DNA of 25,417 nucleotides from a virus (Duplodnaviria; Heunggongvirae; Uroviricota; Caudoviricetes). Below the pieces are notes generated by a model. The model saw only the letters and a list, made by a program, of their open reading frames with translations. It was not told the DNA's origin and did not search any database. Positions within the stretch are counted from its first letter, which is position 1; each line of letters starts with the position of its first letter. The stretch lies in the IMG/VR virus record IMGVR_UViG_2571042636_000001, positions 1 through 25,417 of that record; one strand, 5' to 3'. Made by a program: the position numbers and the translations under genes. Shown piece after piece: positions 7,719 to 25,417 of this stretch.

Positions 7719-8350
7719 GCTTCATCTGCCTGTAATGTGTAATGTTCCACGGACAGGCCGTAATGTCCTGCCTGTAGCGAAGCGGTTAACCAGATGGTGT
7801 CCTTTCTCACCGTTGCTTCTGCTGTGTGATACCTGTAATGGCCATCGAATGTGCCGGCTGTCAGCCGGGCAGTGGTTGTATTGATTACCTGAAAGAAATA
7901 GCGCCTGCAGGTACGACCATACTGGCGCACGAGCTGCATCATCAGTGCGTTGTTTTCACTTAACTGTGTGTCATTAATACGCAGTAAAATAACGTCCCAG
8001 TCATGCTGCAGTTGCCGTTCCAGTGTTTTAACGTCTCCCACGCTAAGACGCTTAAAGATGCGTTCGAAGCCGGCGCGTTCGCCAGAGTCCTGAGCGTTAA
8101 TAAACGCGTGTTTCACTCTTAAGCGAAATAACGAAACCGGCTCACCTTTAAATCGGGTGATATTGCGCTGATAAGCCAGCAGGTTAAGTAAAGGCTCTGC
8201 GCAGGTGTCGACATCAATCTGCTGTAGTGGCCACGTCAGCCAGCTGTATACCTTTTCCCAGTAGCGATGCGATGAATGTGCCAGCGTTAACGGCTCGCCT
8301 TTATTCATCCAGGTGGGGAGCGGGAATTCAGGGATCTCCGGAAGTTTCAC
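7715..8350 (-). CDS. Baseplate/tail protein (P2 gpI-like), 211 aa
   Basis: GTG start at complement of 8348-8350 with a GGAGGTG ribosome-binding site, overlapping the baseplate-J stop (GTGA). Position between a baseplate-J gene and the tail fibre, and size, match gpI-type proteins. Confidence 0.5.
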   Translation of the reverse strand: MKLPEIPEFPLPTWMNKGEPLTLAHSSHRYWEKVYSWLTWPLQQIDVDTCAEPLLNLLAYQRNITRFKGEPVSLFRLRVKHAFINAQDSGERAGFERIFKRLSVGDVKTLERQLQHDWDVILLRINDTQLSENNALMMQLVRQYGRTCRRYFFQVINTTTARLTAGTFDGHYRYHTAEATVRKDTIWLTASLQAGHYGLSVEHYTLQADEA

Positions 8351-19535: not shown

Positions 19536-21323
19536 ATGGCTTATTCTGATGAAGTTATTGCCGCAGCAAAATCACTCTATCTAAAAAGGCACACCCCAAA
19601 AGAAATACAAAAGAAGCTCGGACTGAACAGCCCGCGAATTGTTTATTATTGGGCGACAAAGTTTGAGTGGTACACACAGCTTAATACTGAAGGCGTGGAG
19701 GATGTTATCGCCCGGCGTCTCGCTGTACTGGCGGAGCGTGACCATAAAACGCCGGAAGAACACGATGAACTCGATCGCCTGATTGGCCACCACGTCAAAC
19801 TGATGTCGGTCAGAAACAAGCACGCGGAGCGAATGGCTGAGATTGCACGAATGGGTGCGGACATTCCCCAGCCTGGTCGTTATGGAAAAGAAGAACGCGG
19901 AGAAAAAGGTGCAGGTAAGAAAGAGCGCCCCCGTAAAGCTAATGACGTTTCCGGGCTGACTGCTGAAAGTTTTGAGCCGTTTACCAAAAAACTGTTCGCT
20001 TATCAGTTGCACCTGCGTGAAAACAAATTCCGTCGTGTGCGCAACCTGCTTAAATCTCGCCAGATTGGGGCGACGTATTACTTCGCGTTTGAGGCGTTTG
20101 AAGATGCGGTATTAACCGGCGACACACAGATATTTTTATCGGCATCAAAACGTCAGGCCGAAGTGTTCCGCACCTATATCGTTAAGATTGCACAGACGGA
20201 ATTTGGCATTCCCATTAAAGGCAACCCGGTTAAGTTAAGTAATCTTGCTGAACTGTATTTTCTGGCGACCAACAGCAATACGGCGCAGTCAAACAGCGGC
20301 CACCTGTACATTGACGAATATCTGTGGATCCCCGCTTTTCGTCGCCTCAATGAAGTGGCGTCCGGTATGGCCACCCACTCGCACTGGCGCATTACTTACT
20401 TCTCCACGCCGTCATCCAAAACACACCAGGGCTACCCGTTCTGGTCTGGTGATGAATGGCGCAAAGGCGACCCGAAACGAAAAGGGGTTGAGTTCCCGTC
20501 CTTTGATGAACTGCGCGATGGCGGGCGCGAATGCCCGGATGGTCAGTGGCGCTATGTGGTGACAATGGAAGATGCCATTGCCGGCGGCTTTAACCTTGCC
20601 AACATTGACGAGCTGCGCGAGCGATATAACGAAACAGCATTCAATATGTTGTATATGTGCGTGTTTGTGGATGACAAAGAGAGCGTCTTTAAATTCGATG
20701 ACCTCGTGCGCTGTGGCGTTGATGTCAGTACGTGGGAGGATTTTCACCCGGAAGATGCCATGCCATTTGGAAACCGTGAAGTGTGGGGTGGCTTTGACCC
20801 TGCGCGCTCCGGCGATAACGCCACGTTTGTGGTGCTGGCACCGCCGCTGGTTGCGGTCGAACGATTCCGCGTGCTGGAAAAACACCACTGGCGCAGCATG
20901 TCATTCCAGTTTATGGCAGAGCGTATCCGCAGCATTAAGGCGCGCTATAACATGACGTTTATCGGCATTGATGTTACCGGGCTTGGCTATGGTGTCTTTG
21001 AGCTGGTTCAGGGATTTGCCCGCCGTGAAACAGTGGCCATTCATTACAGCGTTGAATCCAAAAACCGCCTGGTGATGAAGATGCTGGATCTGATTTACGC
21101 CAACCGTATTGAGTGGGATGAAGAAGCCACAGATATTCCGGCATCGTTCCTGGCCATTCGTCAGGAATCCACCAACAGTGGCAATAAAGTCACTTTCACC
21201 GCCGAACGTAGCGAAGAAACCGGGCACGCAGACATCTTCTTTGCCATTGCCCATGCCGCAAGTAATGAACCCCTGAACTATAAGCACAGGCGCAAATCAA
21301 CATGGATCCTGCCAGATGAGTAA
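19536..21323 (+). CDS. Terminase large (ATPase) subunit, P2 gpP-like, 595 aa
   Basis: ATG at 19536-19538; the size matches gpP and the gene is followed by, and overlaps, the portal gene, as in the P2 P-Q operon. Confidence 0.8.
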   Translation: MAYSDEVIAAAKSLYLKRHTPKEIQKKLGLNSPRIVYYWATKFEWYTQLNTEGVEDVIARRLAVLAERDHKTPEEHDELDRLIGHHVKLMSVRNKHAERMAEIARMGADIPQPGRYGKEERGEKGAGKKERPRKANDVSGLTAESFEPFTKKLFAYQLHLRENKFRRVRNLLKSRQIGATYYFAFEAFEDAVLTGDTQIFLSASKRQAEVFRTYIVKIAQTEFGIPIKGNPVKLSNLAELYFLATNSNTAQSNSGHLYIDEYLWIPAFRRLNEVASGMATHSHWRITYFSTPSSKTHQGYPFWSGDEWRKGDPKRKGVEFPSFDELRDGGRECPDGQWRYVVTMEDAIAGGFNLANIDELRERYNETAFNMLYMCVFVDDKESVFKFDDLVRCGVDVSTWEDFHPEDAMPFGNREVWGGFDPARSGDNATFVVLAPPLVAVERFRVLEKHHWRSMSFQFMAERIRSIKARYNMTFIGIDVTGLGYGVFELVQGFARRETVAIHYSVESKNRLVMKMLDLIYANRIEWDEEATDIPASFLAIRQESTNSGNKVTFTAERSEETGHADIFFAIAHAASNEPLNYKHRRKSTWILPDE

Positions 21324-22350
21324 AAAGAAGAAATATTCTGTGACACACGATGCCGGAGCAAAAAAAACGGCCGGCAAAATGACGTTTATTGAATTTGGTG
21401 ACCCCGAACCGGTTGCTGCATGGGGCTGTTATTACGGCTCGCTGTGGGATGGCTATAACGGCTGGTACACGCCGCCCATTGAACGCATGGATCTCGCCAT
21501 GTTGTCCAATATCGCACCGTATCACGGCGCGGTATTGCGTGCGCGCGTCAATATGATCATGCAGGGTTTTCGGGGCGGTGGTGGTATGACACACGCCGCC
21601 ATGGCGGCAGCGGTGACCAATCTGCTGATATTCGGGGATATGGGGCTGCTTAAAGTACGTAACGGCTTCGGTCGGGTGGTGCGTCTGCATACGTTGCCTT
21701 CTCTGTACCTGCGGCGTAACAACGAGGGAGGCACGGTGATTGTGCAGGCGGCACTGGAAGATCTCGTGTATCCGCCAGGCGAAGTGGTGTTCGTGGCAAT
21801 TTATGACCCGCAACAGCAGGTTTACGGTGTCCCGGATTATATCCACGGGATGGAATCCGCCATGCTGAATGTGGATGCCACCCGCTTTCGCCGCAAGTAT
21901 TACAAGAACGGCGCACACCTCGGTTATATCCTGTATTCCACTGACCCGGATATGACTCCCGAGCTCGAGGCGGAATTCCGTAAAAAGATAGAGGCGTCAA
22001 AAGGGGCGGGCAATTTTAAATCCATGTTTATCAATATACCTGGCGGAGACAAAGAAGGCGTTAAGGTGATCCCTATCGGGGATTCAGGTACAAAAGATGA
22101 GTTCCTGAATATAAAAACCATCAGTGCCCAGGATCAGCTCGTTGCGCACCGTTTTCCACCCGGACTTGCCGGCATCATTCCCGCAAATACGGCCGGGTTG
22201 GGTGACCCACTGAAATCCCGCGAAGCATATTACAGGGATGAGGTTATCCCGATGCGCCGCCTGATTATGGAGGGGATCAACAGCGATCCGGATATCAGAC
22301 GACTGGGGGAGGTGAAATTTATTCTTGATTTTGATGAACCCATGGAGTGA
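21316..22350 (+). CDS. Portal protein, P2 gpQ-like, 344 aa
   Basis: ATG at 21316-21318, overlapping the terminase stop. Length is the same as recalled for P2 gpQ, and the gene sits 3' of the large terminase. Confidence 0.8.
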   Translation: MSKKKKYSVTHDAGAKKTAGKMTFIEFGDPEPVAAWGCYYGSLWDGYNGWYTPPIERMDLAMLSNIAPYHGAVLRARVNMIMQGFRGGGGMTHAAMAAAVTNLLIFGDMGLLKVRNGFGRVVRLHTLPSLYLRRNNEGGTVIVQAALEDLVYPPGEVVFVAIYDPQQQVYGVPDYIHGMESAMLNVDATRFRRKYYKNGAHLGYILYSTDPDMTPELEAEFRKKIEASKGAGNFKSMFINIPGGDKEGVKVIPIGDSGTKDEFLNIKTISAQDQLVAHRFPPGLAGIIPANTAGLGDPLKSREAYYRDEVIPMRRLIMEGINSDPDIRRLGEVKFILDFDEPME

Positions 22351-22415
22351 TGTGCGGTATGGGGAAAGAGCGGGTAAAATCGGCGGCAGTAAAACGCTGT
22401 TCCGGGAGGTGGAAA

Positions 22416-22673
22416 ATGCGCAGACAGAAAGCGCGATGTCATTGCTGCGGTGCACATGCAGTGATTGAGAAAACAGCCTGGAAAACCGATCAGTTTGCTG
22501 ATGTGTATTACCGTTGCACTCGTCTCGAGTGCGGACATACCTGGGTGATGAACCTGACCTACTCGCACACACTGGTGCCCAGCGGGCTGGAGAATGGTGT
22601 GTTAAAGCTGTTGATTGAACGGATGCGCCCGGAAGAAAAACAAATGGCGCTGGAGTTGTTGCAGGCCGGATAG
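22416..22673 (+). CDS. ogr: Ogr/Delta-family zinc-finger late transcription activator, 85 aa
   Basis: ATG at 22416-22418 preceded by GGGAGGTGG. Cys pattern C-x2-C ... C-x4-C (RCHCCGAHA ... YYRCTRLECGHTW ... TYSHTLVPSG) aligns by eye with Ogr of P2 and B of phage 186. An in-frame GTG at 22347 is a possible alternative start. Confidence 0.65.
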   Translation: MRRQKARCHCCGAHAVIEKTAWKTDQFADVYYRCTRLECGHTWVMNLTYSHTLVPSGLENGVLKLLIERMRPEEKQMALELLQAG

Positions 22674-22794: not shown

Positions 22795-23001
22795 CTAAAT
22801 ACGCTTCACAATACCCACAAGATTGCCAGGTGACAGTTCTGCTGTGCGTTTAATATCGTCCACTATGTACGATGCATGTTCACGGTTAATCGCATAGATA
22901 TAAAATGAGTATTTCCGTTCATCTGCCATAAAGTCGACAGAAAATAATTTCCATGTACGCCCCTCGACTTCAACCTGTAACGGCATATTTATTCCGCTCA
23001 C
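22795..23001 (-). CDS. Hypothetical small protein, 68 aa (63 aa from the internal ATG)
   Basis: GTG at complement of 22999-23001 with AGGAG 7 nt upstream. Last gene of the minus-strand unit, convergent with ogr. No family recognised. Confidence 0.45.
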   Translation of the reverse strand: MSGINMPLQVEVEGRTWKLFSVDFMADERKYSFYIYAINREHASYIVDDIKRTAELSPGNLVGIVKRI

Positions 23002-23027
23002 GCATAGTCTCCTTTTGAAAATTCTAA

Positions 23028-23405
23028 TTAAATATTTTCGTTACGAAGCATGGCTGCGCGGCAGGCGTTCCAGCCTGTAGCGTATGCAGCCGCTTTGCTG
23101 CTGCCTTCAACTGGCGCATCCTGCCAATACATTTCATCCGGCACTACCGGTGCTGGCAGCTCGCGATACAGCGGGATTACACGACGCGAGTCTGCGTATT
23201 TATCTGGCGGACACTGAAATATCTCACCAAAACCATACTCCCTGACATCTTGCAGTTCCTCGTCATCAGTCCATGCCACCGGTTCTGCTTCCAGCGAGGC
23301 TAACGCTATTTCATAAGCCCGGCGCTCAATATTGTCTCGCACGTCCAGGCTGCCTATGCGCTCTTTGATTTCTTTAATCAGTTCTTTGTCGGTGAAAGTT
23401 GTCAT
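23028..23405 (-). CDS. Hypothetical acidic protein, 125 aa
   Basis: ATG at complement of 23403-23405 with an AAGGA ribosome-binding site. No family recognised. Confidence 0.5.
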   Translation of the reverse strand: MTTFTDKELIKEIKERIGSLDVRDNIERRAYEIALASLEAEPVAWTDDEELQDVREYGFGEIFQCPPDKYADSRRVIPLYRELPAPVVPDEMYWQDAPVEGSSKAAAYATGWNACRAAMLRNENI

Positions 23406-23470
23406 GTGTTAGTCCTTATTCTGCTGTGCTTTCAACTGATGAGGGGAACAAAATCGTTTTAGTGCGTTGG

Positions 23471-23494
23471 CATCAGGGCGGATGCGCCCTGATG
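23471..23494. promoter_or_regulatory. Perfect 10-bp inverted repeat (CATCAGGGCG-n4-CGCCCTGATG) just 3' of parR
   Basis: Read directly from the sequence; it lies between the parR stop and the start of the downstream 125-aa gene. Could be an attenuator/terminator hairpin or a protein-binding operator. Confidence 0.4.
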
Positions 23495-23499
23495 TTGTG

Positions 23500-23811
23500 T
23501 TATTCGGGAAATAACGCCCGGATATTCCCGGCCATCTGGCTGGTTATCTGTGTGGTTGGCGTTGGAGGTGTCGCAGGGCGTTCTGCTCTGGTTTGTGTCA
23601 CTGATAACGCTTCATCATCAGCCCATGCAGCCAGTCGGTAAGCCTCTGCCGGATTCATTTTCAGAAGTGCCAGCCCGGCCAGAAAAGCCACGCGTTGGCC
23701 GCTTTTGCGGGCTTCTGGTGTAAGGCTGTCCAGCCAGGCGCATGCTTCGCCTTCGTTCTTGACGGCGGCGGGCTTCAGATAGAAACTTATCCGTCTGGTT
23801 GGTGTCGTCAT
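23500..23811 (-). CDS. parR: ParR (StbB) centromere-binding adaptor of a type II partition system, 103 aa
   Basis: ATG at complement of 23809-23811, overlapping the end of parM. Sequence RRISFYLKPAAVKNEGEACAWLDSLTPEARKSGQRVAFLAGLALLKMNPAEAY aligns by eye with plasmid R1 ParR as recalled from memory. The longer 148-aa ORF in the track is an upstream run-on. Confidence 0.8.
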   Translation of the reverse strand: MTTPTRRISFYLKPAAVKNEGEACAWLDSLTPEARKSGQRVAFLAGLALLKMNPAEAYRLAAWADDEALSVTQTRAERPATPPTPTTQITSQMAGNIRALFPE

Positions 23812-23815
23812 TGGT

Positions 23816-24775
23816 TTACTCCTTGTCCATTGCGTACAGCCCATTAACCAGAGCAAACTGTGGCACCCCGTCCGCGATGAAAGTCGCATTAACTCCGCAG
23901 GCTTCGCGGATAGCGGGTGCCACAATCTCCGCCCCGCCACCGACAACCATCACCCGCCCGTAACCCGAAAAACCCGCCAGCGCGCGGATCACGCGTTGTT
24001 TCAGTGTCTCTTCCTTTTCACGAATAACCGCCATCAGGCTGTCGTAATGCGCGCCATTGTGGATGTGCTGGCGCAGCCAGGCTTCATCATGGCGATGTTC
24101 AATAATGGTATTAGCGATATGGTGACTGGTGCGCATACCGTTGGTGGCCATCACCGACAGCACGGCATCGGCCATCAGGGAAACGCCTACGTGTGGATCG
24201 CAAAACACCTGGCTGATACCTGCCAGTTGCCCCTGAACCTTTGCCACATCCAGCGTGGTTCCGCCTAAATCAACAATAAGCAGGGATTCAAACGGACTCA
24301 TATCAGCCAGTGCTTTAAAGCCAGCCGGAATGGATTCAGGCATAACCCGCACGTTACGGATAGTGAATGCCTCACCGTTCTGGTACTCCACCGGGCGCAT
24401 AACGTTCGCTTTTTTGCGGTTGATGTTGGCCATATCCGGCTGTGCGTTTGTATCGAAATACTCGCTCAGTGGCAGGGTGACAACCACATCCACCTCCTGT
24501 GGTGTGATGCCTGATTTGACCAGCGCGTGGTGAATGGCGATTACATTCACATCGCTGTACTGGTATTGCGTGTCGGTCGTCTGGATAAAGCGATCGCTGA
24601 CCGGATCAAAACCATAGCGCACGCCATCAAGCATGTAGTTCGCAGGCTGCGAGCCACCGAACGGCGCAGACCATTCCGACTTGAAGCTGTTCGGGCTGAT
24701 GGCGTTGCGGCATTCGCCGTTCTCAGTCCATGCCAGCTTGATGTTGGTGGAGCCGTCGTCGATACAAATTTTCAT
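23816..24775 (-). CDS. parM: ParM (StbA) actin-like segregation ATPase, 319 aa
   Basis: ATG at complement of 24773-24775 with an AAGGAAAA ribosome-binding site. The N-terminus MKICIDDGSTNIKLAW, and ISPNSFK, YSDVNVIAIHHAL, VMPESIPAG, LIVDLGGTTLD, FSGY..VMVVGGGAEI and LVNGLY match the actin-fold phosphate and adenosine motifs of plasmid R1 ParM. Confidence 0.9.
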   Translation of the reverse strand: MKICIDDGSTNIKLAWTENGECRNAISPNSFKSEWSAPFGGSQPANYMLDGVRYGFDPVSDRFIQTTDTQYQYSDVNVIAIHHALVKSGITPQEVDVVVTLPLSEYFDTNAQPDMANINRKKANVMRPVEYQNGEAFTIRNVRVMPESIPAGFKALADMSPFESLLIVDLGGTTLDVAKVQGQLAGISQVFCDPHVGVSLMADAVLSVMATNGMRTSHHIANTIIEHRHDEAWLRQHIHNGAHYDSLMAVIREKEETLKQRVIRALAGFSGYGRVMVVGGGAEIVAPAIREACGVNATFIADGVPQFALVNGLYAMDKE

Positions 24776-24806
24776 GTCGCTTTTCCTTATGTTGGTTAAT
24801 TAACCG

Positions 24807-24917
24807 TTTACGGGATTTTTAAATCCCGCTTTCGCCTGTTTTGTGCGCGCTTCATATATCGCGGCGCGTTTTTTGCTCATTTACGGGATTTGTGAATCCC
24901 GTTTTTGTCTGTTTTTT
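24807..24917. repeat. parC-like centromere/promoter region: two ~39-bp direct repeats, each with a CGGGATTT..AAATCCCG inverted-repeat core
   Basis: Repeat 1 is about 24807-24845 (tttacgggatttttaaatcccgctttcgcctgttttgtg) and repeat 2 about 24879-24917 (tttacgggatttgtgaatcccgtttttgtctgttttttg). They flank a TATAT-containing spacer immediately upstream of parM. Confidence 0.65.
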
Positions 24918-25417
24918 GTTTCCACTGGTCAGGCCACCCCGCAGCAGGTCTGCTTTGCGGCGGGCGCGTTCAGTGGTTTCACTGATTCTCTGTGCGTGCT
25001 CTGCGTCGCGGATGGCGCGCAGCATGTCAGAAAGCACGGTAACGGGTGTTTTCATGGTGTTCTGGTCCTGCTGAAGAGCGGATGCCAGGCGTGCGGCGGC
25101 TTCAGGGGCTGATGCCCCCAGCTGTGCCAGATAGCTGGCGACCGGGTTATGGCGGATCTCCGTGCTGCTTACGCCATGATTACGGCTCAGGCGCTGCCAG
25201 AGCTGCGTGATTCGGCTGTCCGGGCGGGTATCCGGTTTGCGTACAATTTCAAATCCCTGCGGTGCAATGATGCTGCCGTCAACGTACAGACTGCCGCCCC
25301 GTAACAGGTGCTGCATCTGCTGTTCACCGATATGCAGGCCGAGAGATTCAGCAGACTCCCGCCATTCTTTAGCGAGTAATTCGTGGTTATCAGGCAAAGG
25401 CCGCTGCTGTTTGCGGC
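24852..25417 (-). CDS. Hypothetical protein, C-terminal part (ORF open to the right edge); possibly replication-associated
   Basis: The reading frame stays open upstream of the TTG shown as start in the ORF track, so the 5' end is outside the window. Its 3' end overlaps the parC repeats. No family confidently recognised. Confidence 0.35.
   Translation of the reverse strand, partial: RKQQRPLPDNHELLAKEWRESAESLGLHIGEQQMQHLLRGGSLYVDGSIIAPQGFEIVRKPDTRPDSRITQLWQRLSRNHGVSSTEIRHNPVASYLAQLGASAPEAAARLASALQQDQNTMKTPVTVLSDMLRAIRDAEHAQRISETTERARRKADLLRGGLTSGNKKQTKTGFTNPVNEQKTRRDI

Follow-up and report, generated by a model that had tools for sequence, protein, structure and literature searches.

The 25,417-nt stretch of tailed-phage DNA analysed here (Caudoviricetes; IMG/VR record IMGVR_UViG_2571042636_000001, positions 1 to 25,417; called the window below) carries a parM-parR gene pair of the type II, actin-based partition class directly behind gpA, the gene for a P2 gpA-type replication endonuclease. 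Essentially the same locus is already on record for phage P88 (Xuanwuvirus, Peduoviridae) and its relatives PhiSM, P884B11, 520873, vB_EcoM-569R5, Chuche and PhiR44_2. The segment running from the gpA 3' end through parR is 94–97% identical in DNA sequence to P88, to Citrobacter phage PhiSM and to about eight other cultured or induced phages; ParM is 98% identical, two palindromes occupy the same places upstream of parM, and the genes are annotated as ParM or partition protein. The gene order of P88 is integrase, C, Cox, early genes, gpA, ParM, ParR, small open reading frames (ORFs), portal, terminase, and head and tail genes. Compared with P88, the window has a different virion module, an Ogr gene that adjoins the portal gene, and different accessory genes past parR.

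In the ParMRC system of plasmid R1, the parC site consists of ten 11-bp iterons arranged in two blocks around the promoter. The locus in the window resembles this system in the fold and motifs of ParM, in the Pfam family, N-terminal strand and C-terminal tail of ParR, and in the order cis site, parM, parR. It departs from R1 in its candidate cis site, a pair of 16-bp palindromes spaced 73 bp apart of which one falls within the upstream gene, and in its carrier, an integrating phage rather than a plasmid. The StbA-type ParM of the P1-like phage-plasmid D6 belongs to the same family (47.8% identity), but D6 is a 91-kb plasmid prophage whereas the relatives of the window integrate.

Two further systems operate on elements that are normally integrated. 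The srpMRC system of SXT/R391 integrative and conjugative elements (ICEs) is expressed only on activation and binds the DNA upstream of it; with it, a single-copy test plasmid is stabilised and the excised element is lost less often (PMC4489591). The likeness lies in a type II partition system on a normally integrated element, needed in a transient, excised, rolling-circle-replicating state. SrpR, however, has no recognisable ParR homology, SrpM is distant from R1 ParM, the carrier is an ICE, and function was demonstrated there and is proposed here. AlpC and AlpA of the Corynebacterium glutamicum prophage CGP3 are induced early and bind in front of the operon that encodes them; they connect the circular phage DNA to filaments, and its efficient replication depends on them (PMC4446434). 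CGP3 is thus also an integrated prophage with an actin-like filament protein and an adaptor that binds upstream of its operon. AlpC belongs to another actin-like family, the host is Gram-positive and the adaptor gene order differs. With both systems the likeness is one of functional analogy only.

The reading favoured here, at a probability of roughly 0.55, is that the window contains an intact type II ParM/ParR operon that has long resided in the replication module of one integrating P2-like clade and that would act on phage circles.

An intact parM-parR operon linked to gpA

The original prediction had named an actin-like ParM ATPase and a ParR adaptor, and comparison with the ParM and ParR families bore this out with significant matches for both proteins. 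ParM aligned end to end with R1 ParM (PDB 1mwk; E 2.3e-92) at 46.8% identity (146 of 312 aligned residues), matched Pfam StbA_N (E 3.1e-82) and the ParM C-terminal domain (E 3.3e-68), and was assigned to PHROG 691, "partition protein". Its phosphate- and adenosine-binding motifs (DDGSTNIK, MPESIPAG, DLGGTTLD and GGGAE) are intact, which supplies the actin-fold ATPase of a type II system. The second component, a small adaptor with an N-terminal DNA-binding domain encoded directly 3' of parM, is also present: parR begins 4 nt past the parM stop, and its product matched Pfam Plasmid_stab_B (StbB/ParR family; E 2.5e-24, residues 6–75) and was covered over residues 1–103 of 103 by PHROG 2515. Each gene is preceded by its own AAGGA(G) ribosome-binding site, which reads AAGGAG for parR. 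A search of NCBIfam gave only sub-threshold matches for ParM and none for ParR, and a PDB sequence search with ParR gave no meaningful match.

The N-terminal strand of ParR, TRRISFYLKP, is invariant in 11 close relatives, and in an alignment with R1-type and IncI plasmid ParRs the counterpart of RRISFYLKP in R1 is RRTIAFKLNP. The C-terminal tail, QMAGNIRALFPE, aligned with the R1 ParR C-terminus, EETKKNAMKLIN, with the Asn and Leu of an N..L motif invariant. The C-terminal peptide of R1 ParR is the ParM-binding element (PDB 4A62). The linker of the phage protein is shorter than in plasmid ParRs, by about 15–30 residues relative to R1.

Both genes were full length in all 14 loci compared. The median ratio of nonsynonymous to synonymous substitution rates (dN/dS) was 0.074 for parM (55 pairs with dS > 0.02) and 0.38 for parR. 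Thus, parM is under purifying selection, and the low parM ratio together with retention of the ParR C-terminal motif makes the locus look functional rather than a remnant.

The position of the pair relative to gpA was equally consistent. Only 76 nt separate the gpA stop from parM, and parM-parR form the last part of the early/replication module, in the gpA-portal interval and outside the morphogenesis genes. The original prediction had placed the locus within a phage morphogenesis region; instead it directly follows gpA, and its distal upstream repeat lies inside gpA. Distant relatives were collected by protein homology search and contig look-ups. The nearest ParMs outside Escherichia (Plesiomonas, Hafnia, Serratia and Enterobacter; 54–63% identity) are all encoded in P2-like prophages, in the order gpA, 0–2 ORFs, parM-parR, variable genes (HicAB, KAP NTPase, DUF551 and others) and portal-terminase. 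The syntenic upstream genes at loci L007, L008 and L010 match Pfam Phage_GPA, and an integrase is visible at the Plesiomonas locus (L007). The next ParM checked, from Pantoea (53%), is on a Rep3/ParA plasmid. In a neighbour-joining tree built without bootstrap, a single clade of 11 leaves contains all five prophage-verified ParMs and lies apart from the R1-type, IncI and Pantoea plasmid ParMs. Because the same order is kept at 54–63% ParM identity, the association of gpA with parMR would predate the divergence of these lineages; the linkage appears old and more stable than the genes past parR.

At least two ParR allele classes (103–104 aa) were observed, mutually about 52–54% identical, beside ParMs that are 97–98% identical and upstream palindromes that are nearly unchanged. 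The alleles compared were those of the window (23500-23811), L003 (36444-36758), L014 (1241-1555), L015 (1332-1646) and L004. The differences affect the helices, linker and C-terminal tail and spare the N-terminal strand. Recombination within the operon could account for this split, as could diversifying pressure, for example from incompatibility among co-resident prophages; that the two classes are incompatibility groups of co-resident P2-like prophages is a possibility.

A different explanation of the pair is that it is cargo aimed elsewhere, either interfering with competing plasmids or P2-like phages that share its centromere or exerting an effect on the host cytoskeleton. The gpA-gpQ interval is the main accessory and defence hotspot of P2-like phages (2026 survey, PMC13586616), and in the PhiSM paper the gene is named only as putative "fitness" cargo (PMC6456863). 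The persistence of intact parMR within prophages disrupted by insertion sequences (IS) would fit such a role, and the allele divergence to about 52% identity beside nearly constant ParM is reminiscent of incompatibility-driven divergence. Hotspot cargo turns over fast, however, yet parMR stays beside gpA down to 54% ParM identity, and PADLOC returned no defence-model match for ParM, ParR or the two small ORFs past parR. The candidate cis sites, moreover, lie on the phage itself and are unlike the parC sites of R1 and IncI plasmids, so that cross-reaction with common plasmids is unlikely. On balance, an outward-directed cargo function is considered unlikely.

Paired palindromes upstream of parM

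The repeat upstream of parM consists of two 39-nt copies that are 85% identical and 73 nt apart, each containing the 16-bp palindrome GGGATT-N4-AATCCC (Table 1). The distal palindrome sits within the last codons of gpA. The degenerate motif GGGAYT-N4-AATCC occurs only at these two places in the window, even when one mismatch is allowed, and outside the pair it is absent from three whole related sequences, namely P88, the circular record pZ1323PEC0009-2 and a 50-kb prophage locus. The palindrome pair is judged not to be a product of chance. Across 11 close relatives the arms GGGAYT/AATCCY are conserved and the central four bases vary.

Conservation over a longer distance was assessed with the simpler pattern GGG-N10-CCC, which was defined on the window, so that Plesiomonas and Hafnia serve as independent tests. 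Exactly two such sites occur within 300 nt upstream of parM in the window, in Plesiomonas and in Hafnia, at closely similar distances from the parM start and from each other (Table 1). A pair spaced 70–75 nt arose in none of 20000 shuffles of each upstream region. The C-terminal tails of gpA that are encoded over the distal site differ in peptide sequence between lineages, and the DNA motif persists. The pair was not found upstream of parM in the Serratia, R1-type and IncI loci; of the four distant lineages, two were seen to share the two-site layout.

The Serratia P2-like prophage (L010) was observed to carry, at 7887-7978 upstream of parM, an inverted repeat of 14 nt without mismatches and a pair of ATTTCATGACC direct repeats spaced 32 nt apart. 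Such an arrangement suggests that the cis site has been replaced there inside the same gpA-parMR framework.

The original prediction had described a repeat-based centromere of the R1 type. A repeat upstream of parM is indeed present, but the R1-type label does not hold, because there are only two copies, Tandem Repeats Finder returned nothing for the region upstream of parM and no tandem array, and an R1-type control (L012; ParM 99.4% identical to the R1 ParM in PDB) shows two blocks of A/C-rich 11-bp iterons in an 11-nt register. Degenerate R1-like 11-bp iterons hidden in the A/C-rich arm of the 39-nt repeat were also considered and rejected, as no array was supported by the repeat finder or Tandem Repeats Finder.

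Table 1 Positions of the partition genes, candidate cis sites and neighbouring features, in window coordinates unless given relative to parM.
Feature	Position	Strand	Basis or remark
Portal gene	21316-22350		Pfam
Ogr ORF	22347-22673		Pfam
Two small variable accessory ORFs (125 aa, 68 aa), between parR and ogr	22795..23405	-	PHROGs families, function unassigned
GC-rich hairpin, 13-bp stem, directly 3' of parR stop	23468..23497	.	Terminator-like match
parR, adaptor / predicted DNA-binding protein, 103 aa	23500..23811	-	Pfam Plasmid_stab_B, PHROG 2515
parM, actin-fold segregation ATPase, 319 aa	23816..24775	-	Pfam, PDB alignment, PHROG 691, dN/dS
Proximal candidate ParR site, palindrome GGGATTTAAAAATCCC	24812..24827	.	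Begins 52 nt upstream of parM ATG, within repeat 24807-24845
gpA 3' part, P2 gpA-type replication endonuclease (cut by window end)	24852..25417	-	Annotation of matching DNA in P88 and E. coli genomes; gpA stop at 24852
Distal candidate ParR site, palindrome GGGATTCACAAATCCC	24885..24900	.	Begins 125 nt upstream of parM ATG, within repeat 24880-24918 and gpA coding sequence
GGG-N10-CCC pair, window	distal -125, proximal -52 from parM ATG		Spacing 73 nt
GGG-N10-CCC pair, Plesiomonas	distal -131, proximal -59 from parM ATG		Spacing 72 nt
GGG-N10-CCC pair, Hafnia	distal -128, proximal -55 from parM ATG		Spacing 73 nt

The palindromes might alternatively act as RNA or DNA hairpins, for instance as processing sites, antisense terminators or gpA replication signals, with the true ParR target elsewhere or absent. 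Both sites of the window can indeed form hairpins of 8 bp (-10.7 and -11.0 kcal/mol, z about -4), one of them scores as terminator-like on the + strand (24883-24902), and gpA, the gene that contains the distal site, encodes a protein acting in cis on phage DNA. In Plesiomonas and Hafnia, however, the folding energies are only -3.3 to -4.9 kcal/mol (z -0.7 to -2.6). These lineages have kept the outer triplets with 10 bp between them, the spacing of seven turns and the distance from parM, and have lost stable pairing. In addition, the sites are followed by no sense-strand T-run, and there is no + strand gene needing a terminator at that position. A hairpin function is accordingly regarded as rather unlikely. 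Since the triplets, gap and spacing persist where hairpin stability has been lost, the paired sites look more like duplex protein-binding sites, and the invariant N-terminal strand of ParR would fit their conserved arms as the predicted binding partner.

Chromosomal residence of the carrier elements

The portal, Ogr and large terminase genes of the window were confirmed with Pfam and the tail sheath with PHROGs (PHROG 907, 3e-149), and on this gene content the element is confirmed as a P2-type myovirus, in agreement with the original prediction of a P2-type head and of portal and Ogr neighbours. The full P2-like set of head and packaging genes (portal, terminase, GPO scaffold, P2 capsid, gpM, gpL), Ogr and a contractile tail was recovered, partly through the annotation of the related prophage L003. 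Only about 7% of the window has a DNA-level match to any of 50,697 phage records, and at least 80% of it is covered by matches of about 95% identity in 41 complete E. coli genomes. Among the matches listed, all near-full-length relatives of the window are on chromosome-sized records. The best listed whole-window relative, L003 (94.8% identical), is a prophage inserted between raiA and pheL; a DNA methylase, Com and Hok are encoded at one end and a C-type repressor and integrase at the other. Integrase, repressor and Cox would lie beyond the window end; they are present in L003, in P88 and in the Plesiomonas locus. Since only the par segment matches P88, the whole relatives are chromosomal and L003 has an integrase, the window appears to come from the interior of an integrating P2-like prophage in which a P88/Xuanwuvirus-type replication-par module is paired with another P2-type virion module.

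Screening of 5426 complete E. coli genomes detected the 1.4-kb par segment in 1303, at 1449 chromosomal places and 2 plasmid places. A ParM at least 95% identical was present in only 6 of 72,556 plasmid records, comprising records of 0.23–1.4 Mb and one 34.5-kb circle, and the remaining plasmid ParMs were less than 60% identical (best-scoring 5000 records). Within the collection of 50,697 phage records, this ParM family was confined to P88-like phages and the phage-plasmid D6. A ParM scan of genome contigs returned three near-identical loci only.

The small circle is pZ1323PEC0009-2 (34,461 bp), a record entered as a non-mobilisable plasmid. It comprises an entire P88-like genome, closed between the integrase and methylase ends into the attP form. 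Its genotype is 99.9% identical to a chromosomal prophage of another strain, so the circle may be an excised or induced form caught by long-read assembly; it may also be a rare plasmid state. As assembled, the record shows that a circular form exists; stable inheritance does not follow from it. The host assembly of pZ1323PEC0009-2 was not among the top matches in the E. coli collection.

These data bear on the original proposal that the element probably persists outside the chromosome as a phage-plasmid, a low-copy circle kept by parMRC instead of or alongside integration. In its favour are a complete ParM/ParR pair under selection, the P88-like circle with joined ends, a 26.8-kb Shigella boydii "plasmid" that also matches, and the ParM of D6, a phage-plasmid protein of the same family. 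Neither residence as an autonomous replicon nor a plasmid-type replication or maintenance module was found among the relatives, however: chromosomal places outnumber plasmid places 1449 to 2, the closest listed relative has an integrase, a repressor and host flanks, and the genotype of the circle occurs as a chromosomal prophage. The sole replication gene seen is gpA, which encodes a rolling-circle initiator belonging to the lytic programme; neither P88 nor pZ1323PEC0009-2 showed a replicon of plasmid type. P88 and the remaining cultured carriers encode integrases, and a defined attB is the integration site of PhiSM (PMC6456863). The prediction had itself set a chromosomal position with an integrase just outside the window, together with inactive par remnants, against such a lifestyle; the former is what the relatives display, and the latter is at odds with a parM dN/dS of about 0.07. 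Maintenance of the element as a phage-plasmid is consequently thought quite unlikely. It is also rather doubtful that P88-type P2-like phages are facultative phage-plasmids, in which gpA-linked ParMR and a two-site centromere would let the circle, whether excised or freshly injected, persist and be segregated for generations as a carrier state or as lysogeny without a free attB; if true, this would reveal a hidden extrachromosomal lifestyle in a classic integrating phage family.

That the locus is a decaying, non-functional relic of an old recombination with a plasmid is extremely improbable, for although truncated ParM clusters (261, 229 and 188 aa; hundreds of members each) exist in the protein database and some host prophages are IS-damaged, the full-length genes at 14 of 14 loci, the constrained parM, the retained motifs and the synteny across genera contradict it, and plasmid ParMs that are all less than 60% identical leave no recent capture.

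Several observations were made on individual loci and neighbouring genes. In E. coli O111:H8 (L013) IS1203 truncates gpA, and in O157:H7 (L014) IS1203 lies directly beside parR; parM and parR are still intact ORFs in both. A 226-kb contig labelled Vagococcus sp. WN89Y (NZ_JBQPOM010000071.1) carries an E. coli-type gpA-parM-parR locus with a 97% identical ParM, most likely through contamination or a mislabelled assembly. The stretch holding the two small ORFs differs among the window, P88 and L003 and is outside the par locus proper. The 125-aa ORF (23028-23405, - strand; PHROG 5117/660) seems to be an accessory gene that has been exchanged widely: DNA 90–95% identical to it is found in hypothetical genes of hundreds of conjugative Escherichia and Klebsiella plasmids, and also where lambdoid and Stx phages have their Ea22/EaA/DUF551 regions.

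The virion module (1-22700) encodes P2-type head genes, a DUF2586-type sheath and a 698-aa tape measure, with Ogr beside the portal gene. With almost no match in the phage records and about 95% identity in 41 E. coli chromosomes, it looks like a P2-like lineage that has no sequenced cultured representative in the collection. As called, the 108-aa Ogr ORF begins at a GTG that overlaps the stop of the portal gene. Translation probably begins at an internal ATG instead, because the Pfam Ogr_Delta zinc-finger match starts at residue 30 and a RefSeq relative is 85 aa long. The 19-nt cohesive end (cos) of P2 was not found in the window with 3 mismatches allowed.

Proposed role of parMR and its significance

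No sense-strand terminator and no consensus sigma-70 promoter were detected in the gpA-parM interval of the window, Plesiomonas or Hafnia. Because neither separates gpA from parM, parMR is most likely read with the early lytic/replication transcript, and transcription likely stops at the strong hairpin 3' of parR. Inspection of the stretch between and beyond the palindromes for a sigma-70 promoter gave only poor matches, and a claim of ParR autoregulation was rejected.

In the mechanism proposed here, the N-terminal strand TRRISFYLKP would let ParR dimers bind both GGG-N10-CCC palindromes at the gpA-parM junction, which are separated by seven helical turns. The ParR C-terminal tail (..NIRALFPE) would capture the ends of ATP-ParM filaments, and growing filaments would push apart or position circular phage genomes. 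The system would be active only in the extrachromosomal phase, after infection or excision, when gpA is making circles and before integration or packaging. It would not be made in the repressed, integrated prophage and would not serve plasmid-prophage maintenance. The benefit may lie in spreading or positioning replicating circles, as with AlpAC of CGP3, in less loss of the excised element in dividing cells, as with srpMRC, or in both. Action on extrachromosomal circles is proposed because these two precedents fit; the binding of ParR to the sites, joint transcription with gpA, the time at which the system would act and what the phage would gain are all inferred.

Several points weigh against this proposal. 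The two-site model covers only part of the clade, since the Serratia lineage is without the pair and carries other repeats (the Enterobacter locus lay outside the comparison). Two sites are far fewer than the ten iterons of R1, and a filament-capturing complex assembled on two sites is only hypothetical. The need for active segregation is not obvious either, as P2-type replication yields many circles in a cell near lysis. The promoter scan was strict, so a weak ParR-regulated promoter could escape it and allow expression in lysogens. Intact parMR in the IS-damaged O111 and O157 prophages could be a hint of a host-side role, or may reflect just recent decay. The literature searched contained no experiment on P88-type parMR and no functional study of ParM in P2-like phages; ParM or partition was not mentioned in two large surveys of P2-like phages, nor were phages in a paper on genome-encoded ParMs.

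The discovery value is modest. The original prediction had regarded the arrangement as unusual, but the genes are already annotated in RefSeq and GenBank phage and genome records, both proteins have PHROGs families, the locus belongs to a very common P88-type parMR class, and it does not define a new phage-plasmid, a lifestyle that is without support here. What the analysis adds is the form of the cis element, a conserved palindrome pair overlapping the gpA end instead of an R1-type iteron array, together with the apparently old gpA-parMR linkage under purifying selection and the two diverged ParR classes beside a near-identical ParM.

Plasmid-type actin segregation genes have stayed under strong selection beside the replication gene of an integrating phage family, and about 24% of complete E. 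coli genomes, among them those of O157, O111 and ST131 strains, contain that family. The role of the locus, once known, would show whether a two-site centromere suffices for ParM-driven movement. If the proposal is true, the locus would join the SXT/R391 ICEs and CGP3 as a third documented case of an integrating element that actively manages its transient circle.

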